DNA of 64,000 nt, taken from Massalongia carnosa. Its lineage: Eukaryota. The position numbers and the translations under genes were made by a program. The DNA is taken from positions 2,604,001 to 2,668,000 of the forward strand of contig OZ287071.1 in NCBI GenBank assembly GCA_965645245.1, written 5' to 3'. Position 1 is the first letter of the stretch. Every line of letters begins with the position of its first letter. A model generated the notes under the pieces. The model made no database searches, was not told the DNA's origin, and saw only the letters and a program-made list of their open reading frames with translations. Below are positions 5,421 through 63,992 of the stretch, one piece after another.

Positions 5421-7178
5421 TTTTGGATGATAACGATGAGGTGAGGTGAAATGTTGTTGGTGCGTGAATTTTTTAAAGTAGGGTTTAGACTGGGGGTAGA
5501 AAGTAACAGTGGTGGGTGGGTCTGGGGGCTAGGACTTGCCTTTTGCAGTGCGGTGGAGATGGCTGGGAATGGTATCTGTGTGGAGTAGGTGGGTTGATGT
5601 TGACTTGAAAGGGGGAAGAAGGCGGGTATTTATATTTCTGAACTATTTCCGAAAGCTTCCGCGGAAGGGAAATGAAGGGGGAAGATCGGGGGGGGGGGGG
5701 GGGAATAAAGGCATTGTGTACTTCGAAGAAAACAACAACAAAAAAACCTAGGGCTTTTGAAGAAAGAAACCAAGGCGTTCCGAAGAGAACAAAAATAAAT
5801 CAGGGCAAACGGAAGTCAAAAAGACACGGTTCCATCAACCCCCCCCGACTATTACATCGAGATTCGACTAGTAATAGACCCACGACAAAGAAAAAAAAGG
5901 GGGAGGGGGGATTTTTCGAGGATGGACGAGAAGGAAAGAAAGCTAAGCCATGGCTTAGAAGAAAGACTGCACAGAGCAGAAAAATAATTTGGAAGGGGGG
6001 GGGGGGCGGAAATTGGTGGGATGCTTGATGAATGGGGATATTGGTTTTGGTTAACGGGTTGTTGAGAGTGGGAAGGTATGTATGAATGAGGGTGTTTGAT
6101 GTTTTATTTTTCTAAAAAATGGGTGGGGGGTAGCAAGGAAAAGGAAAGGGAGAAAAAGGACTGAGTGTTGGAGAGGACATGGATGAATTGAATTGAATTG
6201 GAAGGTGGGCTCGATAATTATAAAACTCCCAATGCCTTTAATCCCCCCCCAAAAATACCCTTTCATCCTGCTACCAAACATCCGTGATATTGAAATAAAT
6301 AAAATAAAAAACAGTTATCGTCCGGTTATCGTTCCATCACTTCACTAATTCCATGAACTATTTCCATAAGTATTTCCGTCTGTTAAGCTGTTTTGCTTCT
6401 TCTGATCCTTCTCCTCATCGGGGTTAGTGGCAAGATGGGGAGAGAGAGAGGGAGAAAGAGAGGAAGGAAGAGAGGAGGATGATGGTTGGTGGCAAAGAAA
6501 AATCATGAGATACGTAGGCTTCGGGAGGGGGGGGGAAGGTAGTAAGGTGAAGAAATAGATAGACAACTAGGCGGATGGATTCAGGATATAAACTCCGAGA
6601 ATGATAAACATAGGATGAAAGACGAGAGACGAGATATGTAAAGAAATGACAGAAACGGAGAGAGTGAACAAATGCGGAGGAGAAATGGGAGGCCTTGGGA
6701 GAAAGGTGTAGCCGCTTGCGGCCGAAGATTCTAGTTCGATAACGATGTAACTGTCGCCAGCCGGGATCATTTGCCCACCGTTTTCTACCCTGATTAATAG
6801 AGACAAGCAAAAACGTGCTTTAGTAGAGCCAGACGGTGGACATATACGTAAATATATACCCGGGTGGTGTGGAAGCTGCGCCAGTGGCACAATGAAACTC
6901 GAGGCCGAGCTGCAACCAGAAATTTATGCGCCGTCGCCTTTGAGGCTGAGCTCCGCCAAGCTGAAAGAACTTTCAGGCAAGACCCAATACGGCTTTCGAT
7001 CTTTAAAATATAGATGTCTCTTAACGTGATTGCGAAGCGCCTAAGAAGCTATTCGCGAACACTTGAGAGTTAGGTTGGTTATTCCTGAGAATAATTGTTG
7101 CTTGCCCGAGTTGTTGGCCTGAGACTTGCTCTGGCTGTCTAAATACATACATATATCTGTTGCTCTACGGAGACTACA

Positions 7179-20164: not shown

Positions 20165-20236
20165 TTTGCACGAGGGTTATTCTGATTGCTGCCGTACCAA
20201 GACAATCACTTCACACCGACGAACTACACAATCTCT

Positions 20237-22297: not shown

Positions 22298-22846
22298 TGG
22301 TAGACGGTACTCTTGAAAGTCATACCGTTTATACTTCGTTGCATCCGAATGATGTCGAATGCAAAGCACTCATAGAGTATAGCAATCTTCCACGATGAAA
22401 ATGCAGAAATCGTTCCGAGATTGAGGGTGAAGTTTTCATATGCATTTCAAGAATACGGTCGTTTGTCGAAGCTTCAATGTTGCACAGCCTCATCCGCTAC
22501 GTTCGGATCACTTGTCATGGGGCCACCATCGTTACTCGTAGTTAGTCCTGCAAGGCAAGTCGGCGATGCGCTCGGCGCCACATTTAACATTACGCCACAG
22601 AGCACGATAAAACAAGTTATTGATTCACGATGATGTTTTCTTACTGTAATGAAGGAATATTCACTCGTATTAAACTTATTATTTCTTGTATTGACGATAT
22701 AAACCAGAAAAAGCTTCAAGTTTCATCTAGCTGTTTAGATCTTTAATATCATCAACACATATGATGACTTCTTTTATCCCGTCAATTACTTCGTATTCAT
22801 AAATGTACTCCGTACTAAATTAACAATAACTGTCGACATAAAATAT

Positions 22847-24677
22847 CTATTTCCGCGTAGATCCCGGCCTAGAATCCGGATAAACAAGATTCCAAACCGC
22901 TTTCTCCGTCCCCCCAGGCCTCACATAAGCATTGTCCACAATCAAATCCCGAACCGCACGCGGGACGTGCCCCCTCTCCCGCAGGTGGGGATAAACGGAC
23001 AACAAATAAGCAGCTAGCCCGGCGACCGAGGGAGCGGCAAAAGATGTAGTTCCGCCGGTGATGGTGCGGCCTTCTACCCCCGCGCAGGTCACTTCTCCGG
23101 GTGCCGATACTGTCAGGGCAATTCCCCCGTTGGAGGTCGGTGTTGTATGGCCGTTGGTCAGGACAGCCCCAACAGTGATGATGGGGAATTCGCCGTTGGG
23201 TTTCAGGGTCAGAAGAGCAGGCCATTCGAAGATGTCGGCGTTGGTGGTGGTGGTGGTGGTGGAGAAATACGTGTCGCCTGCGGACACGACTACCACGACT
23301 TGGTAGTCGTCTAGCACCTCCTTTATGAGCAATTCTAGGATATTCAAGTGAAGCGGTTGGAGCGTCGCCCATCCGGACGAGATGGTGACTACGGTGTAGC
23401 CTGGGATAACTTCCCCTAGTTCCACTCGTCGGTCAAGATCGTTGAGTACTTCTCGTAGCAAACTCAGGAACGACTTCGCCCGTAGGGTCATTTCACCTAT
23501 CACCAAGCTTACCTTCTTGGCCACTCCGAAATCGATGCCACCAATCTTCGAGGCAATGCAAGTCGCGTGATCTTCTGTGGTGTCTTTGGTTCTATCCACG
23601 TCCATGCCATAGAGGAAGTGTTTTATCTGGCCAGGGCGAAATTCCGGATGCGCTGTGTCCACGGCTCCATCGAGAGAATATACTGTGATCGTTTCACCAG
23701 CGTTGGAGAAATACGTATACTTTGAGTTTTGCGTCATGACTGAATCCGGAGATGTTGATATGAATGCCAAATCCAGCAGAGAATTTGGCTGCACCACCAC
23801 AAAGCCATTGCGTTTTTCGCGTTGATCCCCCCTTTTCCTCGGCCTGTTGGTGACCTTCCTTGGAGTTGATGGAAATCGATCAGACACAAGCGGTTCATCG
23901 GGGGCAACGCCAAGAACACCCTCCATGGCCCGGATGAGAGTTGTTTGTTCTAACGTCAGCGCGGCGGTCCAGAAAAACACTCCACACTTCCGGACTTCAG
24001 AGGCATGAACCCCTCCAGGGGGTTTCATCTCATTTAGAGACTTGGCAATATTTTCATTTTGTATCGTGCTAGCACAATTAGAAGCGTATATCAGTTGATC
24101 AGTGGCGACATCGCAAGGATCCTGTGAATGTAGGTTATAAGAGCTGTAAACCGCAAAGACTTTAAAGTCTTGGATTTGAAACTTGTCGGATTTCGCTGAT
24201 AATGCAGAGGTGCTGAACAGATAAAAGAACACATACTTTGAGACTCGGAGTCACATCACCAGAATCTTGGAAGGGTACAGGGGTATGATCACACTCGTTG
24301 TCCACAGAAGATCTTTGAGGTGATGATGGTTGATTCTCTAACCCCCCACTCGGGCCAATTATTGGCACTGGCGAATTCAATTCAGGGTCCGCATCTGCCG
24401 GGGAGGCTATACCGGTCTCCGGAGTGGATTCCGGCGGGGGAGTAGTTTCAGGTTCTGCAGGAGGTGCCAAAAAATCAAATAAATCTGATGAGCTAGGAGA
24501 AAGAAACAAGTTCTGAATTACATCCGCTCCAGCGTTTAACAGAGAGCCAACACCATTCCAAATAGCTGGAATGGGCGAGTCCGGCCAAGGTTCTTGACGT
24601 GTAAGAAGACGTGAGGAGGTGACCCGGATAGGGGTTTGGCAGATGAGCAAAACACTGAAAAGAAACAAACCGCTCAT
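22847..24677 (-). CDS. Secreted subtilisin-like serine protease (S8), 2 exons
   Basis: Signal-peptide-like MSGLFLFSVLLIC, Pro-rich linker, phase-0 intron at about 24122-24236, KR processing site. Triad motifs VYSLDG (D), DHATCIASKIGG (H), TTSFAAPSVAGLAAY (S). Confidence 0.85.
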
Positions 24678-37952: not shown

Positions 37953-39102
37953 ATGCTACGGCAGATGTATGTAGGAGCAATTTCGCAGACGTAGTCGCTA
38001 TTAATTCCTAAACTAATACAAAAATCAGTAAACCCAAAAATGCGCGGTCGAAACGAGCGCTCGCAAAGCGTGAGCCTCTGTCCCACGAAAACACCAAAAC
38101 CGTCCTCTTTCTGCGCGGCACCAGCTCCTCGCTCCTCGTCAACGATCTGCTCACCGATTTCCACGCACTCAAACGTCCATTCGGGGTCCGATTTACCAAG
38201 AAGAACTCCATCCACCCGTTCGAAGACGCTTCAAGCCTCGAGTTCTTCTCCCAGAAAAATGACGCCTCGCTACTGCTGTTTGGCAGCCATAGCAAGAAAC
38301 GGCCGCACTGCCTCACGTGGATCCGATGCTTCGGCGGGCAACTCCTGGACATGATGGAGCTCTGCGTGGTGCAAGACACGGCGCGGACGCTCGGCCAGTT
38401 CAAAGGGGAAAAATGCAAGGTCGGAGTGAAGCCACTGTTGAGCTTCTCGGGCGCGGCGTTCGAAAGCCCGGTGGCAAATCCATACACGCTCGCCAAGAGC
38501 CTTTTCGTCGACTTCTTCCGCGGGGGCGAGACGCAGACGGTCGACGTGGAGGGGTTGCAGCTGCTGATCAGTTTTTTCGCGGGCGAAGAGGGCGCCGAGG
38601 GTCAACCAGCGCAGATCCACATGCGGTGTTGGAAGATTGTGACGAAAAAGAGCGGTCAGCGCGTGCCGCGGGTTGAGGTGGAAGAGATGGGGCCCAGGAT
38701 CGATTTTACGGTTGGAAGGGTCAAAATGGCCGATGAGGGCTTACAGAAGCAGGCGCTGAAAAAGGCTAAGGGACTCGATGTAAAACGTCCCATGTCATGC
38801 GTTTCCCTTCCCCCCCCCCTCCCCCCCCTTTCGCGAACCTGCTAACCCCCAACTCCCTACGCCCGCAGGCGAAACCGAGAAAGAACGTCGAGACCGACCC
38901 CGTTGGCGACAAGATGGGGCGGATCCACGTTGGCAAGCAGGACCTGGGCGATCTGCAGACCCGGAAGATGAAGGGGCTGAAACGAGCCCGGGAGGCCGCC
39001 GGCGGCAGCATCGACGAAGAGGAAAAGGAGGAGGGCGGCTCGGCTCCAGCGAGTCAGGGTGAGGAGGGAGTAGGTAGCAAACGGGCCAAGATGATGACTT
39101 GA
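37953..39102 (+). CDS. RPF2: Brix-domain ribosome biogenesis factor
   Basis: MLRQI|KPKNARSKRALAKREP, KKNSIHPFEDASSLEFFSQKNDASL, VEVEEMGPRIDF, GDKMGRIHVGKQDL. Confidence 0.93.
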
Positions 39103-40448: not shown

Positions 40449-42160
40449 GGGAATCAATACCGGGACACCCCTTTTCACTACCTTGACACCCCATTTCACT
40501 ACATTAACACCCCCAAGTAAGCTAACCAAATCGGGTATAAATTTCCCTCGGGCGCAGAAATAACTGGAGAAAACATGCTCGATTTGATGAATTCAGGTGT
40601 GTTTTAGACAGTCGTTTGATGCTTTCTCGATGATTATTTCATTGAATTGGGCTTCATTTCGTGTTTACACTTGAAAGGCCTAGAGCAAACCCACTCCATC
40701 TACTTCAATCGATTGAATAGCTTCACCGGAGGCCACCCTTTCACCTTGTGACTGCCCTCTGCCCCGTCCTCGCCCTCGCCCTCGCCCTCGCCCTCGCCCT
40801 CGCCCTCGTCCTCGACCCCGCCCTCGCCCCCACCCTCGCCTCGGAGGCCCATTCAACACCTCCTCGACATGTTCGAACCCTGATAACTCCCGTTGGGTAG
40901 AGTTATCAGCCTCCCGTTGAGCTCTTTCCGATTGTAAACGCATCGCGATTGACGGACGCCCTCGGGGTCGGGCTACTACCTCGGGGTCGCGCACCAATAG
41001 CAAAGGATCGATGACACTTGGAGGTGGTGATTCGTGGCGATAATAAGCCCGATCAAGGGGGCGCTGAAACCACCATTTGATGTGAATGTCGTCGCGCTGA
41101 AGCACATTGGGGGCCGGGCCAGAAAGTCGAACCTAATTGCAATAGAATTAGTACGTTTTCAGGGCTATTTCCTTCAGTTTATCAACTTTCCTGGATTTCA
41201 TGAGCACATGGTAGCCCCATTGTTGCTCGAAATGCCCCGGTGCATAATGAGAGAGGGGTCGTTTGATCCAAAAGACGTTCGTACTGACTATGCACCTTCA
41301 ACAATGCAAAAGGCGTGATATAAGCCCTTACATCGCTGTAAAGAGGTCTTCGTAGTCGGGTAGGAAAGCGCATTTTAGCCTCATCCAGTTTTATCACGTA
41401 CTCTTGATGCTGATTCTTTAGTAACAAATCAATATTGTCAACCACCGTTTTGAGATCACCGGTAGAAAATCCCAACTGATGTTTCAAGACAGCATGGCCC
41501 CCCTCCACCCTAGAGGTAGCAATATTGTCGAAATGAAGAACTTTGTCGACGAATGCCTTGACGAATTTTCGTTTATATGGGGCTAGCCATGTGTCTACCA
41601 GATAGTGCACTTCCGCTGAATGATCATGTGAATAAGCATCATTCAGAGCGTCCCAATTGACCTCATATTCCTCTTCAGTCTTTGAATAAACCACCGCATG
41701 CCACATGCTTTCGAAGGCCATCCAGTCATCGTTGGAATGAGCACTATGTCTAAAAACAGGTTTCCAATGCTCCTGAACATTCCTGTGAATATGCCACAAG
41801 CATAACAAATGACGTGTGTCAGGAAACACACTGTAAATAGCGGCCATGAGGCTAATGTCTCGATCGGTGAGTACTACCTTTGGATAGGAAATATTCAGCA
41901 TTCGATAAAGGGTTTTTAATTGTTGAAGATACCAAAAATAGTCCTCTTTACGTTCCTGACGAAGAAAGGCAAACCCCACATAAAATGAGGTGTTTAGGGC
42001 CGTTGTTCCCATTGTTGATATCAATGGTAATTTGTATCTGTTGGTTTTATAGGTGCAGTCCATGATTAACACGTCGGGGTTGGTCATCAGGGTGCTTTGA
42101 CAGGAATCTTTGCTGAAATAAAGATGTGTTATGCGATCGAGATTGTCTTTGAGATAAAAC
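40449..42160 (-). mobile_element. MULE (Mutator-like) DNA transposon, 5'-truncated; one terminus with subterminal repeats
   Basis: LIMDCTYKTNRYKLPL, VLTDRD, LLCLWHI, TSRVEGGHAVLK, MGLPCAHEI. Frameshifted C-terminus with RPRGRP and (GR)n. GACACCCC.TTTCACTAC repeats at 40464-40510. Confidence 0.85.
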
Positions 42161-42600
42161 GAATTCCTAGATGACTCAGTGATTAATCGATAGTTGTTTG
42201 TGCCTATCGTATTTAGCAGAGTTTTTCTGTTGTCGTTGAGTTTGCAAAACATGATCACATGTTTTGCAGTCTGTTTGTGCCAGCCACATGAGCAGTTCGG
42301 GGACGAGACGTCTGGGACTCGGTGTCTATGTAGGAAGGCGGCTAGGCCTATCTTTTCTGAGCGTATCTGAATGGCTAGCGCGCTCTCCGCTTTGGCTAGA
42401 GTTTCGTGCAATTTGATGCGTTTTTTGGAGAGTGAACCTGATTGTGCCGGGGTGGGAACGCGTGTGCGTTCCTGATATGATCTCCACGAGGCCTGCCATG
42501 CAACTGTGTGTCGTTTTTTTATTTGAGCAGTTATTTTTTTATGAGCGGCGCGTGCCTCCCCTATTTCTCGGGCGAGATTCGGGGGGGATTCGGCCCATGG
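42161..42600 (-). mobile_element. Non-LTR (LINE, Tad1/I-like) ORF2 C-terminal fragment fused in frame to the MULE transposase
   Basis: WQASW...KAESALAIQIRSEKIGLAAFLHRHRVP...CSCGWHKQTAKHVIMFC is the post-RNase H CCHC region typical of fungal LINE ORF2. Confidence 0.75.
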
Positions 42601-42799
42601 TGGATTTGGTGTCGAATCTTCTCTTGATGCCACTGCTTATGGTAAATATAAAATCCTTAATTATAGGATTTTATACTCTAAAGCAAGCTCAACTGCAACA
42701 TCGACAATGTAGTGGCCACTACGAATTTCGATGGAGGTTCCATTGAAGGTACGTTTCCCCAACAGTAAAGATGTGGAGTTCACGAAGTCAAACCTCAGA

Positions 42800-45553: not shown

Positions 45554-46891
45554 CAGTACTAGGCCAAAAGTCTGCGGCCCCGCACCCCACCAACATTTCA
45601 ATCATTCTATTCAATCAACAATCAACCACGTCACGATTGCTGAAATGTCTTGAAACTTTACATAATGATTACATACATACTAAACAAGAATTCCCCCAAA
45701 AATTGATTTTTAATATTTAGTATACCATCCTTCCGACGCTATACACGCTTTTATCCTCCTATTCATGCTCTCTATTAACCTCCTCATCATTTTCACATCT
45801 ATCAACGTCCAGGCTTCTTCTAACGCTTTCCAAAGTACCTCACGAACAGTTTCATCACTGCCGATCACCAAATCTATGTTCGGGTTGACTTGATAGACGA
45901 GCTTTTTGAGCACATACCAAACGTGCTCGATGGGATTTAAATCAGGTGAATAGGGGGGCCAATCGCTGACCTCTATGCCGTTCTCATTGAACCATTCCAT
46001 CACCTTTTTAGCCTTATGTATAGGTGCGTTATCCTGCATGAAAATGAGGCCCGGTTGCCAAATTCCAAGCAGATTATCGTTCAATAATTCCATATATGAG
46101 TTCGCCGAGTACCCCATCTTCTTCGCAGCAAAATCACGAGCCAATTTGTAAAGATTTGACCTGTCATCTTGCGAAAAAGCTGCCCAGACCATGACACTGA
46201 CTCCTTTGCCTTTGGGGACAGGTTGTATCATCTCTTTATTCCATTTTTCTTTCGGCAATCTGAACACCCACTGACGCTGTTTTCCTGACCCCTTTTCCAC
46301 CGAGCACTCATCTGACCATATAACTCTTGACCACTGCTCAAAAGTCCACTCACGCCGCAGCAAGCACCAATCCAATCGTTTCTTGGCCACCTCAGGCGTC
46401 AATAAAGGTCGTTTTTTAGCCACCCAGTTGGTTAAACCATACAGTTTGAGTGCCCGATAAATAGTCGTACGACTGCAGCCCAGCCCCACTTCTAGTTTGA
46501 TTTGTGCATAAGTGATTCGTGGATTGATTCGTGCATGCTTGATGATATAACGTCGATCGCGTTCTGACAGCACTTCAGGCCGTCCAGAACGTGATTTAGA
46601 CACGCCGTCGTTGCGAATTGAGTGCTTCTGAATGGTGCTCTGCACGGTCGATTTAGTGAAATTAAGAGTCTTCCCAATCTCGGTCGGTGTGTGCCCCAAC
46701 GCCTGGGCCCCAACAATCATACCACGTTGATATGGCGTCAATTCAGTGTTACGAGGCCGATTACCACTTATGGGGGTCAAAGAAGCACGAAGCATGGTGA
46801 AATGATGAGGTGGAAGATGGGGGGTTGATGAGTTGAAAACGCGAAATCACGAAAATTACGGGTTGGGCCGCAGACTTTTGGCACGGGACTG
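45554..46891 (-). mobile_element. Complete Tc1/mariner (impala-like) element, 1338 bp, 27-bp TIRs, TA target duplication
   Basis: Left TIR CAGTACTAGGCCAAAAGTCTGCGGCCC (45554-45580); right TIR (46865-46891) reverse-complements to CAGTCCCGTGCCAAAAGTCTGCGGCCC. TA flanks both ends. Confidence 0.95.
45710..46795 (-). CDS. Tc1-family DD34E transposase, intact
   Basis: Paired HTH, RSGRP linker, VIWSDE, FMQDNA, SPDLNPIE; 34 residues between the second D and E. Confidence 0.95.
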   Translation of the reverse strand: MLRASLTPISGNRPRNTELTPYQRGMIVGAQALGHTPTEIGKTLNFTKSTVQSTIQKHSIRNDGVSKSRSGRPEVLSERDRRYIIKHARINPRITYAQIKLEVGLGCSRTTIYRALKLYGLTNWVAKKRPLLTPEVAKKRLDWCLLRREWTFEQWSRVIWSDECSVEKGSGKQRQWVFRLPKEKWNKEMIQPVPKGKGVSVMVWAAFSQDDRSNLYKLARDFAAKKMGYSANSYMELLNDNLLGIWQPGLIFMQDNAPIHKAKKVMEWFNENGIEVSDWPPYSPDLNPIEHVWYVLKKLVYQVNPNIDLVIGSDETVREVLWKALEEAWTLIDVKMMRRLIESMNRRIKACIASEGWYTKY

Positions 46892-49200: not shown

Positions 49201-51530
49201 GAAGAAGTCAAACATTTCGATGACGCTGTCGCCAAAATAAGAAAACAAGGAAAAGTGTTCATATTAGTAAAAAGGGATTTCTCCGATGCCTTTCGCCATA
49301 TACCCGTGGCTAAAAGCGACTGGTGGTTGCTGGGATTTCAATGGGATAATGTTTACTGGACGGAGCGCTTTCTACCTTTCGGCTTGCACACGTCTCCTTT
49401 TCTATTCGATTTGCAAAGGGGATAAATTGGATGTGTTTACAAAATCAACATGATGTGCTTCATTATCTAGATGATTTCTTGGCAGTTTGCCGCACTAATC
49501 CCGAAGCGGAAGCTTTCACTCGGTACTTCTTCGATCTTTGCAAAGACCTTGGAATCGCAGTCAAGAAAAATAAAACTGGTCATGTGATCGATTTCTTAGG
49601 CATTGAATTGGACACTATGCTCATGGAAGCATGGCTACCCACCAGACAAACTGCACAAAGCCAAAGACCTCGTCAAACAGGCCTTGCAAAAATCATCGAT
49701 TAGAAGGGAGGAATTAGACTCCTTGGTGGAATATTTGTCATTCGCAGCTAAAGTGGTAGTGCCAGGGAGAGCTTTCCTCCGACGTCTTTTTAACGCAAAA
49801 GCCATGTCTCGTGGGCGTCATATTTATATTAACGAGAATATCAAAGCCGACCTGCAGTGGTGGCATCTTTTTTTACCTAAATGGAATGGCATTCGCATGT
49901 TAGACCGTCCTCGCGAGACATTTCGTCTTTGTACGGACGTATCGGGGTACGGCATTGGGGCCTACATCCTAGTGGAGGATCATACCAGTTTCACCATGCC
50001 CGCTGAGCATGCACTTTCTGAACGTTTCACGTCTCGGCTTAGGCCAATTCACATCAATGTCAAAGAAATGACAGCGATACTACACGCTTTGCGTAAATGG
50101 CTCCCCCTTTGTGCAGGGAGCCATGTGATTTTCCACTGTGACCACTTTGCTGACACGTCACGAATAAGGAAATCATCTATTCGTGGAAACGCTATGCGGC
50201 CTCTTCGGGCAATCGCAATGCTGACCGCTATTCATGATATTCGGATTGAAATACGTTGGATCCTAACAAAGTCAAATGAGCTCGCTGACCTCCTATCGCG
50301 GGGCAAATTGGAGAAAATCGCTAACAAATGGCCCAATTTACAGGAACTTCTACTCAAATCCTAGCACGCGACCCTCCCGAAAGCTGGTATAGCGAAATAA
50401 TTCTATCCTGACCAGCAGCTAGATACCTGTGGTGGGGCTTGGCAGTCAAAACCCGCAGTCTGTATGACACAGGGAGAAGAAGCTATGTAACACACTGCAG
50501 AATATCAATGAACGCGACTTCATTTCCGGCAACCATACAGACCTTGTCATCTTGGATAGCGTTGCTAGGAGAACACAAAATACAGCCCAAAACCATCAAG
50601 GCCTATTTAGCCGGAGTTCGGTCCAGCCAAATCGACACGGGCTTTGAGGATCTAGAAACGTTTCACCATCCCGTACTAAATAGAATCATTGCTAGCATAA
50701 AGCGAAAGAATGGCGAAGCCGACAAGAAAGAGCGAATGCCCATTACGAAAAACATACTCCTTCGTTTAGTGAAACGATTGGACTTAGCCGACAACGTGCA
50801 GGCCACTCTACACGCAGCATACTGTCTAGCATTCGCAGGATTTCTTCGCGCAGGCGAATTTACGTACACTATCAGAGACCTAACAGACCCAAGCTTCGAA
50901 TCATGGCATTTAACTAGGAAATCCGTCCACTTAGAAGCAGATAAGCTGTTCCTCTCCTTGCCTGCGTCCAAAACCGACCCCTTTCGTTGAGGCATTACGC
51001 TAACGATAGCCGCATCAGGGGACGAGGCCTGCGCGGTAAAATCCATTCGTAATATGATCACCCGGTTTCCACTACCTGCAACCTCCCCTTTATTCTATAA
51101 ACAAAAGGCTTTCACACGCGAATATTTGATCACCGCGATGCGATCAGGGCTTAAGAGCTTAGGCATAACAGGTAATTATTCAGGTCACTCTTTCTGAAGA
51201 GGTGCAGCGACGTCGGCCAAGGAAGCCGGTCTTAGCGAGAACGACATTTAATTACTAGGCCGGTGGAAGTCAGACTCCTACAAGCTTTATATCCAAACGC
51301 ATCAATCCCACATCTTAGCCACCTCACGCCGTTTTCAATACCCTCCTCAGCCTCCTAAACAGCATCGCCGGGCGAGCCGTTTCCATCTTGGGCTTGGGAG
51401 TATCCACCGCGATCTGCACCAAGGCCCGAAAGGGGGCGCTAGGTAGAGGCGCCGGCGAGAGTGACGGCGCCAGCGAGGTGCAGATTGCTGTGTTTCCGCC
51501 AACCTAGAAATAGAAGCAATACGAGGTCAC
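49200..51530 (+). mobile_element. Ngaro/DIRS-type tyrosine-recombinase retrotransposon, 5'-truncated and decayed
   Basis: RT (KRDFSDAFRHIPV, LPFGL, HYLDDFL), RNase H (TDVSGYGIG, INVKEM, NELADLLSR) and YR (AFAGFLRAGEF, SKTDPF, GHSF*RGAAT, LGRWKSDSYKLY). Frameshifts and TGA stops at 50988 and 51195. Confidence 0.9.
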
Positions 51531-54889: not shown

Positions 54890-57800
54890 TCAATGTACTT
54901 TTCGTCGCACAGTTCGAATTAGTCGAGTTAATCGATTGTTTTCTGCGGTATACTTTGAGGCATGATTCGTGTCAGATGCATCAGTGAATCTATTTAACTG
55001 TTTAGAGTCGCAGCTTTTCAGTTGATTTAGGGCCTCAGCTGTCTCCCAGTGTTTGGATCCTAGTGTACTTGTATAACCTTGTACGACAAGCTTGAAGTGA
55101 TGTGTCGCATCCTCAAACATAGATCTTTTCTTGTACAAAAATCCTAAATTATATCTTGTACCTAAGGATCGTTTATGCTCAGAACCCCAGGCCTTATCAT
55201 AGCCTGTCAGTGCCCGCAGATACATTTCTTCGGCTTCTTTCATCTTGCCTTGATCGGAGTACAGAATTCCTAAATTGTTGACGGTGTCGAGCGTCGACGT
55301 GTGCTCGACGCCCCAGGCCTTTTCCTTGCCTGTCAGTGCCCGCAGATACATTTCTTCGGCTTCTTTCATCTTGCCTTGATCGGAGTACAGAATTCCTAAA
55401 TTGTTGACGGTGTCGAGCGTCGACGTGTGCTCGACGCCCCAGGCCTTTTCCTTGCCTGTCAGTGCCCGCAGATACATTTCTTCGGCTTCTTTCATCTTGC
55501 CTTGATCCTTGTACAGAATTCCTAAATTGTTGACGGTGTCGAGCGTCGACGTGTGCTCGACGCCCCAGGCCTTTTCCTTGCCTGTCAGTGCCCGCAGATA
55601 CATTTCTTCGGCTTCTTTCATCTTGCCTTGATTCTTGTACAGATTTCCTAAATTGTTGACGGTGTTGAGCGTCGACGTGTGCTCGACGCCCCAGGCCTTT
55701 TCGTAGCCTGTCAGTGCCCGCAGATACATTTCTTCGGCTTCTTTCATCTTGCCTTGATCCTTGTACAGAATTCCTAAATTGTTGACGGTGTCGAGCGTCG
55801 ACGTGTGCTCGACGCCCCAGGCCTTTTCCTTGCCTGTCAGTGCCCGCAGATACATTTCTTCGGCTTCTTTCATCTTGCCTTGATCCTTGTACAGAATTCC
55901 TAAATTGTTGACGGTGTCGAGCGTCGACGTGTGCTCGACGCCCCAGGCCTTTTCGTAGCCTGTCAGTGCCCGCAGATACATTTCTTCGGCTTCTTTCATT
56001 TTGCCTTGATTCCTGTACAGAACTCCTAAATTGTTGACGGTGTTGAGCGTCGACGTGTGCTCGATGCCCCAGGCCTTTTCGTAGCCTGTCAGTGCCCGCA
56101 GATACATTTCTTCGGCTTCTTTCATTTTGCCTTGATTCCTGTACAGAATTCCTAAATTGTTGACGGTGTTGAGCGTCGACGTGTGCTCGACGCCCCAGGC
56201 CTTTTCGTAGCCTGTCAGTGCCCGCAGATACATTTCTTCGGCTTCTTTCATCTTGCCTTGATTGGAGTACATAAGTCCTAAATTGTTGACGGTGTCGAGC
56301 GTCGACGTGTGCTCGACGCCCCAGGCCTTTTCCTTGCCTGTCAGTGCCCGCAGATACATTTCTTCGGCTTCTTTCATCTTGCCTTGATCGAAGTACATAA
56401 GTCCTAAATTGTTGACGGTGTCGAGCGTCGACGTGTGCTCGACGCCCCAGGCCTTTTCCTTGCCTGTCAGTGCCCGCAGATACATTTCTTCGGCTTCTTT
56501 CATCTTGCCTTGATCGAAGTACATAAGTCCTAAATTGTTGACGGTGTCGAGCGTCGACGTGTGCTCGACGCCCCAGGCCTTTTCCTTGCCTGTCAGTGCC
56601 CGCAGATACATTTCTTCGGCTTCTTTCATTTTGCCTTGATTCCTGTACAGAATTCCTAAATTGTTGACGGTGTTGAGCGTCGACGTGTGCTCGACGCCCC
56701 AGGCCTTTTCCTTGCCTGTCAGTGCCCGCAGATACATTTCTTCGGCTTCTTTCATCTTGCCTTGATTCTTGTACAGATTTCCTAAATTGTTGACGGTGTC
56801 GAGCGTCGACGTGTGCTCGACGCCCCAGGCCTTTTCGTAGCCTGTCAGTGCCCGCAGATACATTTCTTCGGCTTCTTTCATCTTGCCTTGATTGAAGTAC
56901 AGAATTCCTAAATTGTTGACGGTGTTGAGCGTCGACGTGTGCTCGACGCCCCAGGCCTTTTCCTTGCCTGTCAGTGCCCGCAGATACATTTCTTCGGCTT
57001 CTTTCATCTTGCCTTGATCGGAGTACAGACGACCTAATTCATGACATGCGTCGCTAAGAGGTAAAGGATATATCTCGTTAACAAAGCTTTCTTGTATGCG
57101 ATGCTTCAGTAATGGGAAAACACGATCGCAATGTGGCAGAAGACGTCGCGATGTGAAGGAATAATTAGGCAAAGTCTCTAACGGCACAGCGGATGCGACA
57201 ATAATCATGGCAAGCCAGCTCATATCAGTCTTCTCTTTTTCAAATGCGTGAAGTGACCATTGATGAAGCACAGGATGCATAAAGAAGGAAGATGATTCAG
57301 TTTTTGCATCGATGAAGGAATATTCCAAAAGTAATCGTATGCATTCTTTAAATTCAAGTTCATCGCCTGCACATCTGATATACCAATCAGGCATCTCGTT
57401 GACAATATCAAGATCTAGCGCAGATACAAAGAGCTCATACCAGAGATCTTGGTTGTCAAGAAACGCCCACAGCATTAAAATGTTCGCTGCGTCCTTACTT
57501 TGCGCCTGAAGATGGTTGAAAGATAACATCCATGTTGTCAAAATACTGCAATCTGCACCTGCTTGAATTGTGAGGCTTTGCTGCTTTTTCATCAATTTTT
57601 CCCATGTGTGATTATATGACTTAATGTACTCAAACACGTTTGTGCCAGTTTTTCGCATGTATGAGCCGGCTTGATTAATCGCTAGAGGGAGGCCTTGAAG
57701 TAGATTTACAATCTCGAATAATCCTAATAAGTCTCAGATTTCAGATAATGCCTGAGCAAGTATGCTTCTTATTGCACTGACCTTGCATAGATTGCCCAAG

Positions 57801-59653
57801 ACAATTCTCGAGAATACTTTCTCCTTGCAATTGATTGACCGGTTTCACTTTCATATCCGTACCCAAATGCAATAAACTGGCTAGTCGAGAGGTGATAAGG
57901 ATAGATCCTTGATCTGCCGTTGGGAAAAAGTCTTGAACATTGAAGGCTTCCGGATCTTCAATTGATCCGAAAAACTCTCGATCCACGTTGTCAAAAATTA
58001 GCAGCCACTGATCATTTGATGACTGTGATAACCAATTGAGCACATCCTTAACGATTTCATCCACATCCGTGTTCGTCTTCGTGCTTTTCTCTTGTGAATA
58101 ATTTCTGCTGTTTTCAGATATCTGATGCTGTGGTAGTCGACCGGCAAGGTCAGCAATGCTTCGCTTCAGTCTCTCCTTTGTCGAGCCGTCGACCCAAAAG
58201 ACTGCGGTGTAGTTCTTGTGATGTTGTCGAGCGAATTCAACGGAGAGCTGAGTCTTTCCAATCCCGCCAAGTCCGTGAAGAATGAATACTTTGCGACGCA
58301 TTGAATCTATGGTAGTGGGAAGTAAAATCCGAGTCAATCGAGTCATCTCTGCGTCTCGAGCTACAAAATGGTTCATCACAGGAATGCCCTGAAGACTGAA
58401 TTCAACATGAAACGGTTTTTTTTCGCTGATTTCAACACGTGCTGATAAAAAGTCAGAGAAGCCTTGAAAAACGTGAAGTCTAAAGTAAGAAAGATGAATC
58501 CTACAGTGATACTGTTCCTCGACTCTTTGAGACGCATTCTGAATCATTCTCAGAACCTCTGGCTTTATCAAGAGAAAATTTTCATCTTCAGGGTCATTGA
58601 ATTTGTTCAACCCCGAGTGATCCGTAGTGAGGTATATGGTCCTTTTGCTAAGCAAAGAAGCTGACTGATAATCAACGAACTATGAGTCATAAGCTTTCAT
58701 CCCAGTTGAGCATGAAGACAGAGATTATGAGACCTGAGTTTGCCAAGGTCCATATGAACCTTTCTTGTCTTCATAAAAGCAAACGATATCAACATTGACG
58801 TAACTTGTTTCGAAGTCTCGCGCTACATCATGAAGAGTAGGGCTGTTTTTTTTCAAAGACTCCAATAACGTCTTATCATGTCCTACTGCTTGAGCAAGCC
58901 ATGTACCATATACTGCAGCGTCACTTCCTTGATGTGGCGTTCCAAGAAAGATGATCCCAGTCGTGGACAGTTTGATGTCTCTAAAATCTTTACCATGATT
59001 GGCTAATACTAGAGCCTATGAAGAGGACCTTAGTAATTAAAAAATTTAGTGTCAAGCTAGACCGACCTGTTTAATAACTAAACCTCCAAGGCTATGCCCA
59101 ATAAAAATCAAGGGTCGACGACGTTGCTATATAGACTATTAGGAAGGACAAATGAGGAATTCCCGCGATCGCTTTACTAACTGTTTCACTTGACCGATTC
59201 TGATAAAGAACATTAAGAAACTGCTCCCCACATTTGCGGAGACTTGTTTTGATGTCTGCTCTTCGCCAGTCTGACTCGTAACTGTATGTCGCAATTCGAG
59301 CATTTGAAGCGAAGTTCGGCAGCAAGTCTCGAAGCCACATGACTTCAGCAGTGTCGGATGTCGTTTGAGCGGCATCGGGATGTTTGTCAGTCTGAGCACG
59401 GCTATTTAAGAACTTGAATCGATGAGCTTTTCTAGACTTCGGTTGCTTCGCAGAATTTGGCCTCGAGACCCATGTGTAATATGGATCAGCACCGAGACCT
59501 TGAACTGCAATAACGCTTAAACGCTTGTCAGTGATGCTGCGACTCCATGAAGAATCGTTTGTCTTACTCTACTTCGGGTCCGTTACAGTCTTGCTCGCCA
59601 CTGACCCAAATATTAAGACCTGAGGCCTTTACTGTGTCTCTGCTGCACATCAT
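54890..59653 (-). CDS. Fungal NLR: alpha/beta-hydrolase (SesB-like), NB-ARC and TPR domains; apparently intact
   Basis: VIAVQGLG, WLRDLLP, FIGHSLGGLVIKQ, GIIFLGTPHQGS, DHSGLNKF; P-loop HGLGGIGKTQL, WLLIFDNVD, ILITSR, GLPLAI; TPR array. The N-terminal exons I spliced by hand stay in frame. Confidence 0.92.
55150..57040 (-). repeat. 15 near-identical 126-bp (42-aa) TPR coding repeats
   Basis: Unit LGxxYxxQGKMKEAEEMYLRALTG[K/Y]EKAWGVEHTSTL[D/N]TVNN. Confidence 0.97.
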
Positions 59654-60914
59654 TATAGCGACCTAAAATATCAAAAGATCAAATTTGTTTTAGGTAGCTA
59701 CCTCTATTTGTATATCCGTGCCCTCGTATCGCTCTGCACCAGCGCACGAATCAACAGCCGCATCCCCCCAAAGTGGCTAAGCGCACTTGGGATAACTATA
59801 TTTATGTTAAATTATCCTCCAACCCCTTTGCGGGTGTAGCGCAGCCCTGCGAGCCTTGGCGCGCCAGGCAGTATATAATAGCCATGTAGACAGATCTCAA
59901 TAGAACACACCTTCATGCAGTCTTCTCTCCTCCCTACCTGATATACCATTTAACTATTTTAACAATTCTTTTCACGTTTCATGCTTGTCTATACCAACTA
60001 AGCTTCCTGGCCACCGGTCCTCACCACGGAGACACCGAAGGCCTCATCAGACTGAATTAATGACCGTTTCTTTTTCATCAAATAAGGCTATTTTATGCGT
60101 CTGACACGTCGTAGACGAAATGGAGAAGGACTCGGAGGGCTGCCGTACGCACGGTCACCGCGCTCACTACGCATTACGCCTCTGAGGGTTCAAGCTCCCC
60201 CGGTGTAGTCATCAGCTGGTGGTACGCGAACGCGATCATAACCGGGCACGGTAGATATGAGTTCTTATGGAAGATGATCTATCTATAGAGGTGGCTACGA
60301 ATCTTTTATGTGGGTGGCCTTTTTGGCTAGCTTGACACTGAACAGAGTGATGACTCGGTTAATGGTAACTAGCCTGCCTTGTAGGGCTGGGGTTACAATA
60401 GCCCAACAAGTCTTTCAATTTTGGAGGTTCATATCTTTTCACGCAGCCATTGCTTGATGTACAAAACGAACTCGTACATACATCGGTGCTCATCCGGGCA
60501 AACTCTGGCCACGGGACGGCCATGCGACGAGACATACACAGTAGGCGACCTCACAGTTTCGATATCATGAGGATACCATTAACCGTATTATTCTATAGAC
60601 TGCAAAGGGCGATATGAAGGGGAGAAGGGCTATTAGGTACTGTACCAAATTCTGGTGTGTGGTCCAATTCTGTCTCTTATTTTTTTTCACCGCGCAGTTT
60701 CGGGGTTCAAAGTTCGGCACACCATTTTGCAAACGGGTGTATGTACATACATAGTAAGCTCCGGACGTGCACGCGCAAATGCAGCATCAGGGCTTTCATG
60801 TAGCTTTCTGAATTTGGTTCTCGGTTTCTTCGCTTCTGACTCGTCTTTCAGGTTTCTACAGAGGGAGTTCCGTCTCCTTAATCGCCTTCTGGTGAGTTTT
60901 TCGGTTTTACATCT

Positions 60915-60937
60915 GTGTGTGTGTGTGTGTGTGTGTG
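60915..60937. repeat. (TG)n microsatellite
   Basis: Directly visible. Confidence 0.9.
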
Positions 60938-61516
60938 GTAATTCGCGGGCTCTATCGTGTCAGCTGAACATATACATAATTTCTATCTATGTTGGGTCAA
61001 CTCTCCCCTCGCTGCTGCCCTGCTGGCGCTCAGTTTTGCTGATGGCCCCTCCTATAATGGCTTTGTTTTGGCAGCAGTGAGGGAAAAACTCCATCTACCT
61101 ATGCGGCTGATTCAGGGAGTGGGTGGGTGGGCAAAAGACCTTTTGGTGCTGAACTCCGAATCAATGGTGATGATGAGGAGAAGAGTGCCAAAAGGCCACC
61201 TATTTATGACCCTTTCTCTCCCTTGCTTGTCCAACTATTTTGGGCATCATCCTCCTTCGAACTTTGGCCTCCGTCGGCTATCTACAGCCTAACTCCACTC
61301 GGTCCCGGCATTACCTTTCGCCCTAGCCGAATTACTTTTATGTGTGCCTATATCCTACATAAAAGCCGAGATCACGGCTCTTGAAAACTTGCACTATCTT
61401 CAATAAAACTAACAACGCCTTTGAGGTATCTACTAAACTCCATGAATACACTTGAATACCAAAATGATTCAGACAAACAACCGCAGCAGCAAACGCACTC
61501 ACTCTCAAACCAACCC

Positions 61517-63992
61517 TTAAGCTTTTTGAAGACTTCTCAGTTCCCGCTTCAGATACTTTATCTCCGATGAAAAGGGTTGGCTCCAATGAACCTCATTCTC
61601 CGTGTCCTCTTCCTCAGCTAAACCCCGAAATTCTATCATGTCTGGATCCTGCTCCGTGTAATTTACAAGTAACATATCCTTGGCCTCCACCTTAGTCCTC
61701 TCGGTGAAAATCCGAAACTCCGTCCTGCCCGAAACCGGTTCTTCGCAAGTCATACGCAGCATGTTGTTCTCGGCCTCGCACCCCCATTTTCGCTTGGGGT
61801 TGGGGGAATTGAGCATTAGAGCGCTGTTGGCGGTGAGCGGAGGCATAGGCATCTTGATTACCGCTCTTTCGAAATCGATGAACATGACCCGTTGGAGTTC
61901 GTTGCTCCACAGAATGTTGCGCGGCGACACGTCCATGTGCAGGATACCAAGTTCGTGGATCGCGTGAATCGCGTGAATCGCGTGAATCGCGTGAATCGCT
62001 TGCTTCGTCACCAGCTGCAGCTTTAGTAAACTCGATGGACTGTCAATACGTGATCCGCCCCAGGCCATGAGCATCATGTGAACAATCTGTACGCCGCAAT
62101 TGAAGGTGTATATTCTCTCCAGGTTAATATTTCCAAGGCATACCGGAATGTGAATACCTTGGATTTTTTCGAGTTGCGTGTACACCTCCCCCTCGTGAAC
62201 GAGGTCCTCGACGTACGCGTATATAGTGCACTTAGCCGCAACGGTGTATCCATGTGAGAGCAGTTGCACCTTGAACAAAGCCCCCGAGAACCCTGCACAT
62301 AGAGAGGGTAGCAGCCAGCGTCAAGGTTCTTGAAGAGCTGCTGTCGGACGAGAAGAAGAAAGGTCTCCGAAGTGATGGAGTGATAGTCGCCGTGTTTATG
62401 ATGACGCCGATGGTTAGGACAATTTCTATCAAGGATGCCCCCCATCAACAAGCCACGAAGGCAGCGCTGTGTACAATACGCTACACGTAGTCCCGAGTTC
62501 TGGTGTCGTAGCGCTTGCGAGGGGCCATAGATTTTTTGAAGTCTCGGTGCCGGCCTGATTGCCGACTTGGAGTATCAACATCATCATCTTTGTCCTCATC
62601 TCCGTCGCCGTGTTGATCATCATCCTCATCATCGCCCGAGCTCATTTGGTCATCCTCATTTACTCCATCTAAATCGAATTGGCGGAGGCTTTCAGCTTTA
62701 GAACGAAGAAAACGGGGAGAGTGAAAGACGAGAAGTTCTTGTCGCCGTGTCGTACGCTTGAACTCGGAATGTGCGATCTCTAAGCGCACCGATTCGGGGA
62801 TTTGTGCCAGTATTGACTGAGGGTCAACCACCCATCTGTCGAGCACTCCTTTCGCCTTGCCAATCCACTCAGCTCCTAGAGCCCGCTATTGCAAAGTCTG
62901 GAGAGTGAATGCGAGGACTTGCCCAAGCGCTGTCAAATGTAAACGGTTCGGTGCTGTAGAGTCAGGGGACCACCCGGTGCTGGAACCAACATCGATGTTG
63001 GGAATAGACAGATGATAGTACACCGTTGTTGGGTCCTCGGGGCGCACATTTAAGAACACAAAGCCTTCTCCCGTACAAACGTAACCGAACTGTAGCCCGC
63101 TCTCCACCATATATGAAAAAGCTTGCGTGATGACTGCAGCCACGAGAAGGCCAGAGTGATATGCAACTCGAGCTTCGGCCTGGTCTTTGCTCGGAATATT
63201 TGGGCATTGCATCAGGTCCTTCATCGGGTTCATGGGCCGAAGTCCCTCCTTCAAGTGTGCCAGAGTTAACTTATGGGGGGCCTTGTACTCGATAATAAAA
63301 CACACAATGTTCTGGCCCTATGCCACGTTATATACACACATCTGATCCGTATGCTTTAGTACGAGTTCGGGAGCTCTTGCCATGACCGGATTGTGTTTCG
63401 TAGAATCCTTTCGAGGACTTAACTGGTGCATGCGGCTGGCAACTTCAGGGTCGTCGAAGCTTAAAGTGTTCTGGTGATTTTCAAAAACAACTCCACCGTT
63501 AAGATGCAGTTTCTCCTTGATTACAGGGTCGGTGCTAAAGTGTTTAATAATCCGAGAGACTTGGCTTTCGACAGCGTATCGCTCGAAAAACTCTAGATCC
63601 TTCTCGGATGCGATCATCCTCTCAAACTGAAACTCGGACCCCTCCAAGTAAGCCAGTGTGCTGAAAACTCGCGAAGACTTGATAGTGTTGCTCAACTCCT
63701 CAAGTTGTTGCCACGTAGCCTTCTGTTGGGTGTTGAATTCTATCCATGGTTTAATGAGCCTTGGACAAAGTTTCCCGTCGGCATTAGAGGGATCGCCTTT
63801 AGTTGCCAATGTTTTATTCATCTGCACCTTCATATTCATGGAGAAGTTAACATGTGCTGCATCTAAGAACTCGAGAAGAGTTGTGCTGCGAAGTTGTCTC
63901 TCAGCTTGCTCCCGAGAAACTCGCTCATTTTCGAGATTTTGCTCTGATCGCCGAAGAAGCTCTCTTAGCTCGGCGACGGTGAGAGACTCCAT
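61517..63992 (-). pseudogene. Spok-like coiled-coil / PD-(D/E)xK nuclease / Cys cluster / kinase protein, disrupted
   Basis: Coiled coil then TTLLEFLDAAH..GKLCPRLIKPW; TDQMCV..IIEYKAPHK..TQAFSYM..FGYVCTGE; YCTQRCLRGL..LDRNCPNH; kinase GSRGALFKV, HMDVSPRNILW, IDFERA. TAGs at 63318 and 62886; frameshifts at about 62480 and 62283. Confidence 0.8.

Follow-up and report, generated by a model that had tools for sequence, protein, structure and literature searches.

The locus and its family

We analyzed one window of DNA, a stretch of 64,000 nucleotides from Massalongia carnosa (contig OZ287071.1). Three features lie near one end of it (X1, X4, and X5 are public runs):

61517..63992, minus strand: broken gene of the SPOK2_N family, 825 codons with its four breaks masked as X
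61005..61341, no strand assigned: high-copy repeat in the flank, about 175 bases past the stop codon, at 15-70 times the depth of the gene in X1, X4, and X5
54890..59568, minus strand: NLR with a lipase-like N-terminus, NB-ARC, and 14.6 copies of a 126-base TPR repeat (Pfam; TRF, 55185-57019)

The start codon ATG (63992-63990) and the terminal TAA (61519-61517) were located on the minus strand, which confirmed the coordinates and strand given in an earlier note on this DNA. The window ends 8 bp upstream of the ATG. The NLR lies 1.9 kb downstream of the SPOK-type gene in the same orientation, with transposons beyond, and its Pfam matches (NB-ARC, AAA_16, and TPR_10 in 15 stretches) agree with the earlier claim that an NLR adjoins the gene. 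Tblastn with intact relatives as queries revealed three successive frames spanning the gene. When the four breaks were masked, no further stop remained in the gene in the alignment.

The N-terminal reading of 503 aa, with stops written as X, matched 330 proteins at E<=1e-3, with a best E of 8e-297. At the sequence level, this match is far beyond chance. Among the matches listed, the best 120 of 330, all carried the precomputed label PF27653.1. PF27653 is SPOK2_N in the Atlas, and 95-99% of the members of the clusters concerned (52, 422, and 2593 members) carry it. The relatives are fungal proteins of 750-820 aa; the gene was collinear end to end with 27 of them, and its first 503 residues aligned with 62. 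The closest relative among the matches listed, P0002, was 95% identical in the first 503 residues and 96% identical across 655 tree columns.

No Podospora SPOK was found among the 120 listed of 330 matches to the window query, or among the 120 listed of 376 matches to a Beauveria relative (P0049). SPOK membership was judged from motifs, predicted fold, and the Pfam label of the relatives, and the Podospora SPOKs were compared by published description. In a tree of 68 sampled family members without Podospora SPOKs, the window gene fell into a separate clade of 10 rows, well apart from the rest. This placement indicates that no tested driver is closely related to the window gene.

Protein domains and predicted fold

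The domain order is helix, conserved N-domain, PD-(D/E)XK nuclease, Cys/His cluster, and kinase. Both this order and the motifs named in the earlier note were all present in the sequence. The features on the minus strand are as follows:

63891..63977: long N-terminal helix, residues 6-34, where SPOKs have their coiled coil (AlphaFold2, pLDDT 83-95)
63468..63884: conserved N-domain, called 'domain 1' in SPOK3, with the motifs TTLxEFLDxxH, NAxGKxxPxxxxPW, and FENHxNTL (conserved columns)
62778..63617: PD-(D/E)XK nuclease fold, residues about 126-405 (conserved columns and VIA-align)
63345-63347: nuclease catalytic D216, invariant or near-invariant in 63 sequences
63282-63290: nuclease E235-Y-K237, invariant or near-invariant in the same set
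63111-63125: nuclease Q290xxxY294, likewise
62499..62768: acidic linker, residues 409-498, predicted disordered (pLDDT under 50) and poorly conserved
62380..62475: Cys/His cluster C-x3-C-x13-C-x5-H-x6-H, in which C, C, C, P, N, H, and H are nearly invariant
61700..62281: kinase (ELK-like) domain (Pfam Kdo, E 2.6e-6, 27.5 bits, cut-off 21.3)
62231-62233: lysine of VAAK, nearly invariant column
61954..61999: 9-base tandem repeat of 5.1 copies (AIH x5), directly before the catalytic loop (TRF)
61931-61933: catalytic D of LHMD, nearly invariant column
61874-61876: D of IDFE, with the IDFER columns nearly invariant

The window protein keeps all of the catalytic and motif positions that Vogan et al. 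2019 (PMC6660238) list for SPOK3. The N-domain reads TTLLEFLDAAH and DGKLCPRLIKPW, and K74, P77, W83, F86, Q90, S129, E130, and H173 were invariant in 63 sequences. The nuclease motifs read TDQMCVY...IIEYKAPHK and TQAFSYM.

An AlphaFold2 model of residues 1-503 had a pLDDT of 74.3 and a pTM of 0.72. When the model was submitted to VIA-align, restriction-endonuclease-type chains made up 10 of the 12 best rows, with BpuSI at Z 9.2 and HsdR chains, including V. vulnificus HsdR 3h1t_A, at Z 6.3, although according to the tool unrelated folds can also reach Z 6-9. The same Vibrio HsdR structure is the best HHpred match that the SPOK3 authors report (PMC6660238). Foldseek against the PDB gave no match at E<=0.001 (best 0.072), with EcoRI and BpuSI at E about 1. 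The model supports a restriction-endonuclease-like fold for the nuclease part, and suggests that residues about 126-175 belong to this fold.

In the frame that follows the first frameshift, the Cys/His cluster reads YCTQRCL...CPNHRRHHKHGDYH, with the core YCTQRCLRGLL...CPNHRRH. Its last spacing is x6 in the window protein, P0003, and P0004, and x7 in the printed SPOK3 motif (PMC6660238). The kinase motifs read GxxGALFKV...VAAK...LHMDVSPRN...IDFER. With Pfam Pkinase, the kinase piece scored 23.8 bits, under the cut-off, and a PDB sequence search with it returned ordinary kinases at weak scores (best E 7e-4) and no solved SPOK. The AIH repeat has at most 3 copies in relatives (AIH x3 in P0002). 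The earlier identification of a Spok-family homologue is thus supported over both the nuclease and the kinase halves, by alignment with SPOK2_N carriers, the positions listed for SPOK3, the fold, and the ELK-type kinase match.

Disabling lesions and comparison with other alleles

Four lesions interrupt the reading frame, all on the minus strand:

63318..63320: lesion 1, a TAG stop in frame at codon 225, within the nuclease core between D216 and E235 (E or G in relatives)
62886..62888: lesion 2, a TAG stop in frame at codon 369 (Q or K in relatives)
62497..62498: lesion 3, loss of one A (AA, against AAA in intact copies), a frameshift directly before the Cys cluster (tblastn frame change)
62281..62285: lesion 4, a G-run of 5 against 6 in intact copies, a frameshift inside the kinase glycine loop GSRGALFKV (tblastn)

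A third TAG at 62481-62483 was considered and rejected as a lesion; it is merely the out-of-frame end of the first frame once the first frameshift is allowed for.

Comparison alleles were taken from contigs of the three public runs X1, X4, and X5, which belong to three studies; X1 is possibly the sample behind the window assembly. At lesion 1, GAG accounted for all depth in X4 and X5 and for 3888 of 4885 depth units in X1. At lesion 2, CAG accounted for all depth in X4 and X5 and for 8265 of 9270 units in X1. The base missing at lesion 3 was present in 1 contig of X1 and in 100 of 193 depth units of X4, and the X5 contig stops 2 bases beyond the site. The base missing at lesion 4 was present in all depth of X4 and X5 and in 6199 of 9367 units of X1. 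The gene was therefore unbroken at all four sites in X4, at all three callable sites in X5, and by majority of depth in X1. Of the earlier reading that the gene is dead or editing-dependent, these results support 'dead', with four disabling lesions that are absent from intact alleles in other samples.

Two further differences from other sequences were found on the minus strand:

63415..63416: 9-base in-frame deletion (S in the window, NLQT in relatives, by alignment)
61517..61519: TAA stop of the window; the contigs of X1 and X4 have AAA and a protein 4 codons longer (KGLV, as in P0002)

The 9 bases were present in X1 and X4, and X5 was the same as the window. The tandem repeat at 61954..61999 was 18 bases shorter in X4 and X5, and the window has G at the conserved A310. 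The allele differences listed comprised 22 non-synonymous and 11 synonymous changes, and DNA divergence between the window and the intact alleles was about 1%. Since divergence is this low and all motifs are still present, the inactivation appears to be recent, as judged from sequence.

Repeat-induced point mutation (RIP) was examined as an origin of the stops. RIP is expected to give a TpA/ApT above about 0.89 and a (CpA+TpG)/(ApC+GpT) below about 1.03. The gene had values of 0.65 and 1.19, respectively, at a GC content of 0.498, and no RIP signature was found. RIP was rejected because the indices are off-threshold and the allele changes run in both directions.

Neighborhood and mobility

According to the earlier note, Spok homologues often lie in mobile accessory regions. 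At this locus, nearby transposons agree with such a setting, whereas a Starship was not seen, as none of 41 window ORFs scanned matched the DUF3435 captain in a window that ends 8 bases upstream of the ATG. Many loose ends fell at 61005-61132 and at 61340-61341 in the high-copy repeat. A MITE search found no inverted repeats in 60900-61500, and there was no second copy of the repeat stretch within the window.

A metagenome scan with P0002 gave 17 pattern matches and no relatives. A scan with the clade alignment gave 27 loci with 30-43% identity, all distant. In their flanks, 77 of 114 ORFs of at least 180 aa were scanned, with duplicate loci and antisense overlaps dropped, and none of the 77 ORFs matched DUF3435. 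NLR, HET, or WD40 genes were located within 10 kb of family members at 3 of roughly 12 distinct metagenome loci.

Discussion

We consider it likely that the window holds a SPOK-type gene for a single toxin-antidote protein of a lichen-forming Lecanoromycete, in a copy (allele or paralogue) that was recently inactivated. Its intact relatives are single proteins of roughly 750-820 aa, combining a helix, a PD-(D/E)XK nuclease, a zinc-finger-like Cys/His cluster, and an ELK-type kinase. In the Podospora SPOKs, killing is due to the nuclease, which acts on DNA, and resistance to the kinase. In SPOK3, K240A is described as abolishing killing, D667A as toxic, and residues 1-490 as able to kill (PMC6660238). 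SPOK1 is described as targeting DNA (PMC9972908), and some Fusarium homologues as acting as toxin and antidote in yeast (PMC12693581). By analogy, intact alleles of the window gene may be toxin-antidote genes acting in meiosis. In the window copy, translation would end at codon 225, ahead of the nuclease E-x-K and far upstream of the kinase, and three more lesions follow downstream. With this stop and these lesions, the copy would neither kill nor protect. The gene is in itself an ordinary case, adding another decayed member to a large family in which decay is known.

A reading that we hold to be possible, though rather less probable, is that the copy is dead and that its lineage never drove in meiosis. 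The intact members of the lichen clade would then be vegetative addiction, allorecognition, or defense modules, perhaps together with the neighboring NLR. Spoks are described as expressed and toxic in vegetative cells, and have been proposed to retain accessory chromosomes in Fusarium (PMC6660238, PMC12693581). Outside Podospora, the activities reported in these papers are some killing by a F. solani homologue in a Podospora cross, and toxin and antidote activity of some FuSpoks in yeast. The clade of its own in which the window gene falls and the 3 of roughly 12 metagenome loci with NLR, HET, or WD40 genes within 10 kb are consistent with a non-meiotic role, although that proportion may also arise by chance. 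A functional link to the NLR is without support. NLRs are numerous in fungal genomes, and the architecture and catalytic residues of the window gene are the same as in proven drivers.

It is very unlikely that the gene is intact in the organism, with one or more of the four lesions introduced as errors during base calling or assembly of long reads. Several observations do point this way. Both frameshifts are 1-base losses in homopolymers (AAA and GGGGGG), the deletion at 62497/8 occurred in none of the contigs bridging the site and is without independent read support, and X5, which matches the window letter for letter in several stretches, is unbroken at 3 sites. False frameshifts and false stops from Nanopore data are described as a repeated finding in Fusarium Spok genes (PMC12693581). 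On the other hand, two of the lesions are substitutions (G to T and C to T) and not homopolymer errors. Window-like letters were present at minority depth in X1, at 63320 (about 1000 of 4885), 62888 (about 1000 of 9270), and 62280 (about 3170 of 9367). The gene has 2 frameshifts in 2.5 kb, against none in the 13 other Pfam-supported frames of the window, which cover 15,354 bases with 66 homopolymer runs of at least 5 and are all open, having been chosen for being open. The window also carries the 9-base deletion, the 18-base repeat gain, and the G at A310, which mark it as a distinct haplotype.

The earlier note had suggested that the gene may be editing-dependent. Sexual-stage A-to-I mRNA editing is known in Sordariomycetes, and both in-frame stops are TAG, a codon that such editing can recode (UAG to UGG), so that a full-length driver would be restored. 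This suggestion does not hold up and is extremely improbable. The two frameshifts cannot be repaired by editing, and UGG would encode W at sites that are E or G, and Q or K, in relatives, rather than restore E or Q. The DNA of other samples has plain GAG and CAG at these sites, which indicates that the TAGs are derived changes rather than a conserved site of editing.

Unrecognized introns that would hide the stops and frame changes and leave the spliced gene open are hardly conceivable and were rejected on the alignment with intact relatives, which runs column for column with no extra sequence at all four sites; in the P0002 gene model a gap coincides with the Cys cluster, as an intron call at that place would produce, but any intron would cut out conserved residues, for example those of the D216-E235 hairpin or of the glycine loop, the Podospora Spoks are described as having no intron in the coding region, and false introns over stops are a known artifact in the family (PMC12693581).

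The window gene can be compared with known systems. Podospora SPOK2/3/4 and P. comata SPOK1 (Grognet 2014; Vogan 2019, PMC6660238) match it, by description, in domain order, D...ExK, QxxxY, C-x3-C-x13-C-x5-H, and the kinase catalytic Asp, and a coding intron is absent from both. The Podospora family is also described as one in which the stop codon tends to shift at the 3' end and pseudogenes tend to arise (PMC6660238), as is seen in the window gene. The window gene differs in its short N-terminal helix, the Cys/His spacing (x6 against x7), its Lecanoromycete host, its separate clade, and its broken state. The P. anserina pseudogene Spok-psi-1 resembles it in having several premature stops and adjoining transposons, whereas in its published description the 5' end is missing and a transposon lies inside the coding region (PMC6660238). 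The window copy is full length, with four small lesions and intact motifs, and is thus probably much younger.

The FuSpoks of Fusarium, like the window gene, are non-Podospora homologues with conserved catalytic residues; they are described as multicopy, often pseudogenized, annotated with false introns in gene models, and tied to transposon-rich regions and Starships (PMC12693581). They reside on accessory chromosomes of plant pathogens, whereas the window gene is from a lichen fungus, occurs once in the 64 kb, and has no captain within the window. Nuclease domains of type I (HsdR) and type IIG/IIL enzymes (BpuSI 3s1s, DrdV 7lo5, EcoR124I 2w00, and V. vulnificus 3h1t) superposed on predicted residues about 40-395 at Z 6.3-9.2, again within the range open to unrelated folds. 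HsdR is described as having the same D...ExK and QxxxY motifs (PMC6660238). The window protein shares 9-14% identity with the restriction enzymes and has a kinase fusion instead of a methylase, helicase, or target-recognition part. The wtf genes encode two transcripts of a membrane protein. These drivers of Schizosaccharomyces pombe have no sequence or fold relation to the window gene, and the analogy is with the life cycle only, in which one-gene toxin-antidote families duplicate, diverge, and decay to pseudogenes (PMC6660238).

Among fungal meiotic drivers, the Spok genes are understood best, and to our knowledge the sexual genetics of lichens is almost unstudied. Our literature search found no report of Spok homologues in lichen fungi, and the Tangerine Starship preprint contains no occurrence of 'Spok'. 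The present results indicate that lichen-forming fungi have a well-preserved branch of the Spok family, and that public samples contain both intact and null versions, which offers a starting point for studying possible drive in lichens. An active Spok-type driver may circulate among these fungi, possibly mobile and crossing species, with a freshly killed, drive-sensitive null allele of it in the window; we regard this as unlikely. The 22 non-synonymous against 11 synonymous allele differences are one hint in this direction, and the run and database comparisons are others. The same gene was found in four runs from four studies, with three different organism labels and one lichen metagenome, at word shares of 0.47-0.75. 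Contigs were obtained from three of the four runs, and the fourth (X6, word share 0.47) gave none and is uninformative either way. In the same database, the best identity of the window's housekeeping gene RPF2 was at most 83%, whereas that of the SPOK-type gene was 95-96%.

The Spok reading and its family

Translation of the minus strand near the right edge of the window revealed a gene-sized Spok reading running from an ATG at 63992-63990 to a TAA at 61519-61517 and spread across three frames, with the window edge 8 bases upstream of the ATG.

Frames of the Spok reading
63992-62499, minus: frame 1, with in-frame TAG at 63318-63320 and 62886-62888
from 62496, minus: frame 2, beginning SGLRVAYCTQRCL...
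from 62281, minus: frame 3, beginning ALFKVQLLSHGYTVAAK...

With its two TAG codons and two frameshifts masked, the reading gave a protein of 825 residues that was stop-free apart from the four masked places. Every motif described for this gene in the earlier note was found where it had been placed.

A protein search with the 503-residue N-terminal reading (stops replaced by X) scored 7999 candidates, of which 330 matched at E<=1e-3. The top match, P0002 (753 aa, E 8e-297), was 95% identical across 92% of the query, followed by P0003 (54%) and P0004 (50%); Aspergillus, Penicillium, Onygenales, Dothideomycete, Hypocreales and lichen proteins matched at 36-43%. The precomputed Pfam label PF27653.1, a label of the relatives, was present on all of the best 120 of the 330 matches. 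PF27653 is named SPOK2_N in the protein Atlas, where clusters of 52, 422 and 2593 members carried it at 95-99%. In tblastn, residues 16-510, 509-583 and 580-775 of P0003 fell on three successive frames of the Spok gene, and no second Spok locus was detected in the 64-kb window. The proposed Spok-family homology is supported: the masked gene matches PF27653.1-bearing proteins and has the nuclease, Cys/His and kinase motifs. Judged from its sequence, the window copy is probably a pseudogene of the SPOK2_N nuclease-kinase family, complete in length and very young, and its host is a lichen fungus.

Conserved residues and predicted fold

Five parts are described for SPOK3 (PMC6660238): a coiled coil at the N terminus, domain 1 (function unknown), a PD-(D/E)XK nuclease with QxxxY whose best HHpred match is Vibrio vulnificus HsdR, a Cys/His cluster (C-x3-C-x13-C-x5-H-x7-H) and an ELK-like kinase with catalytic D667. 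The same account reports that K240A abolishes killing, that D667A is toxic and that residues 1-490 kill (PMC6660238). We aligned 63 sequences with the window N-terminal reading on top, columns past that reading representing relatives only. Q217, C219, V220, E235, P239, H240, K241 and Q290 were invariant and D216, Y236, K237 and Y294 near-invariant, and all are present in the window; at the near-invariant A310 the window has G. Downstream, the relatives' near-invariant columns were the Cys/His cluster, the VAAK lysine, the catalytic-loop D and N, and IDFER, each of which a separate alignment showed in the window. For the Cys/His cluster, x7 is printed as the final spacing of SPOK3, against x6 in the window and likewise in P0003 and P0004. 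The kinase piece scored 27.5 bits against Pfam Kdo, above the 21.3 cut-off, and under the cut-off for Pkinase.

An AlphaFold2 model of residues 1-503 (mean pLDDT 74.3, pTM 0.72) was confident at residues 1-175 and 215-405 and placed a helix at 6-34. Foldseek against the PDB returned no match at E<=0.001. On comparison with 48,161 representative chains by VIA-align, the top match was BpuSI (Z 9.2, 153 aligned, rmsd 3.7), followed by DrdV (Z 7.2), EcoR124I HsdR (Z 6.3) and the V. vulnificus HsdR fragment 3h1t_A (Z 6.3, 118 aligned, rmsd 3.3), where Z below 8 can reflect a common arrangement. SgrAI and other restriction-endonuclease-like chains appeared further down, and such chains made up 10 of the 12 best rows, the other two being mitoribosomal proteins. 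The weight of this predicted nuclease fold would lie in the coherence of the list and its agreement with the published HHpred match. The VIA-align ranges begin near residue 40 or 126, which suggests that the modeled nuclease fold takes in part of domain 1.

Lesions and alleles in other samples

Six public sequencing runs from four studies shared the Spok stretch (word shares 0.47-0.75); one is labeled a lichen metagenome, and none is recorded as RNA. Alleles were compared using contigs of runs X1, X4 and X5, X6 having yielded none.

Lesion sites in the window and three runs (contig depths summed, not fractions of cells)
63320: window TAG; X4 and X5 GAG at all depth; X1 GAG at 3888/4885
62888: window TAG; X4 and X5 CAG at all depth; X1 CAG at 8265/9270
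62280: window five G; X4 and X5 an extra base at all depth; X1 an extra base at 6199/9367
62497: window AA; X4 an extra base at 100/193; X1 an extra base in its sole contig; X5 contig stops 2 bases beyond the site

The lesions are derived and absent from other samples, where unbroken alleles occur. The description of the gene as dead therefore agrees with the two TAG codons and two frameshifts of the window, set against unbroken letters in the X1, X4 and X5 contigs. At 63415, X1 and X4 carry 9 bases more than the window; a 9-base repeat at 61954-61999 has 5.1 copies in the window and is shorter by 18 bases in X4 and X5. In X1 and X4, AAA replaces the TAA stop, giving a KGLV end as in P0002. 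Among 33 listed coding differences between the window and other alleles, 22 were protein-changing and 11 silent; 43 further differences exist.

The lesions could instead be errors in a gene that is intact in the organism. Both frameshifts fall in homopolymers, the 62497/8 deletion has no independent support, and Nanopore data on Fusarium Spoks are reported to have repeatably given G runs falsely short by one base (PMC12693581). Both TAGs, however, are substitutions. Window-like letters occur in X1 at three of the four lesion sites, yet the window may itself derive from X1. Thirteen other Pfam-supported window frames (15,354 bases, 66 runs of at least 5) are open, a soft control in that they were chosen for openness. 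We consider an intact gene very improbable, and at least the two nonsense codons are probably real.

Introns across the lesions were rejected because their removal would take out conserved residues. The earlier suggestion that the gene might depend on editing was not supported: RNA editing would leave the frameshifts unmended and turn TAG into W, where relatives have E/G and Q/K. RIP was dismissed as the cause of the stops (gene indices 0.65 and 1.19; changes in both directions).

Gene models of the Spok family are described, in a study of Fusarium Spoks, as often having false introns across stops (PMC12693581). The P0002 model skips from ...DDDKHGD to YHSITSE..., omitting the entire Cys/His cluster, when compared with window 62415-62604. 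This gap resembles one of those false introns, placed across a frameshift or stop, and the copy in that genome may therefore also be damaged at the cluster.

Phylogeny and host

In a FastTree phylogeny with 68 rows (67 relatives selected from the protein searches plus the masked window protein; midpoint root, local support only), the window paired with P0002. Both lay in a fully supported 10-member clade with P0003-P0007, P0009, P0058 and P0118, the last from the lichen Ptychographa xylographoides. Two groups were separate from this clade: one of Eurotiomycetes and Hypocreales, and one rich in Dothideomycetes, which held the other lichen sequences.

The window RPF2 (38030-38782) matched Lecanoromycetes first (best 83%); its best species-named match was Mycoblastus sanguinarius (80%), followed by many Teloschistaceae (73-78%). 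These matches place the host among lichen-forming fungi, with no conspecific in the protein database. In that database RPF2 reached at most 83%, against 95-96% for the relative of the Spok gene. Either the relative's genome has no RPF2 entry or Spok is far more alike between the two genomes than core genes are; the latter, if so, would hint at horizontal spread. Only two aspects are unusual, the group to which the host belongs and the occurrence of null forms side by side with intact ones; they would matter only if the intact form drives or crosses species.

Neighborhood of the window gene and of distant relatives

Features of the window
to about 40 kb: core genes (CSN4, MTHFD, Brix/RPF2, ATP synthase b, others)
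41182-42636, 45710-46846, 49350-50990: transposon cluster (41-51 kb) that separates the core genes from the NLR, with a MULE transposase frame (484 aa), an apparently intact Tc1/mariner transposase frame (378 aa), and RT and RNase H remnants
54890-59568, minus, as the Spok gene: NLR with NB-ARC and TPR repeat
61005-61341: high-copy repeat, about 340 bases long, lying 175 bases past the Spok stop

Following the RT/RNase H remnants, the frame 50412-50990 had no Pfam match; it may be the recombinase part of a DIRS-like element. The NLR repeat (55185-57019) consists of 14.6 copies of a 126-base unit (42-aa TPR_10) at 96% identity. Fast-evolving sensor domains of fungal NLRs typically have such near-identical repeats. 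NB-ARC and TPR lie in separate frames 8 bases apart, reflecting either an intron or a break. The 61005-61341 repeat reached 15-70x the Spok gene depth in three runs, with many contigs exiting both ends. It lacked inverted repeats, occurred only once in the window, and could be a SINE, solo-LTR or MITE-like family of the host fungus. The NLR-Spok spacer also contains a (TG)12 microsatellite (60914-60937). At 18078-24250, a DUF7025 and AAA ATPase gene, a DUF7708 gene and a subtilase S8 gene lie side by side, kinds often found in fungal non-self or cell-death loci. No DUF3435 captain was detected among the 41 scanned window ORFs.

Distant relatives (30-43% identity) were present at 27 metagenome loci, several being one locus in different samples. 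We scanned 77 of 114 flanking ORFs, and none of the 77 carried DUF3435. As a raw count, an NLR adjoins a Spok-family gene more than once, in the window and among the distant relatives.

Neighbors of Spok relatives at metagenome loci
L002, L003, L005 (one repeated locus): NACHT_N-NACHT-WD40 NLR within 10 kb (L003:474-4175)
L010: HET protein with Ank and TPR frames within 10 kb (L010:12761-19507)
L017: WD40 frame
L019, L023: transposases
L007, L012, L018, L020: housekeeping genes
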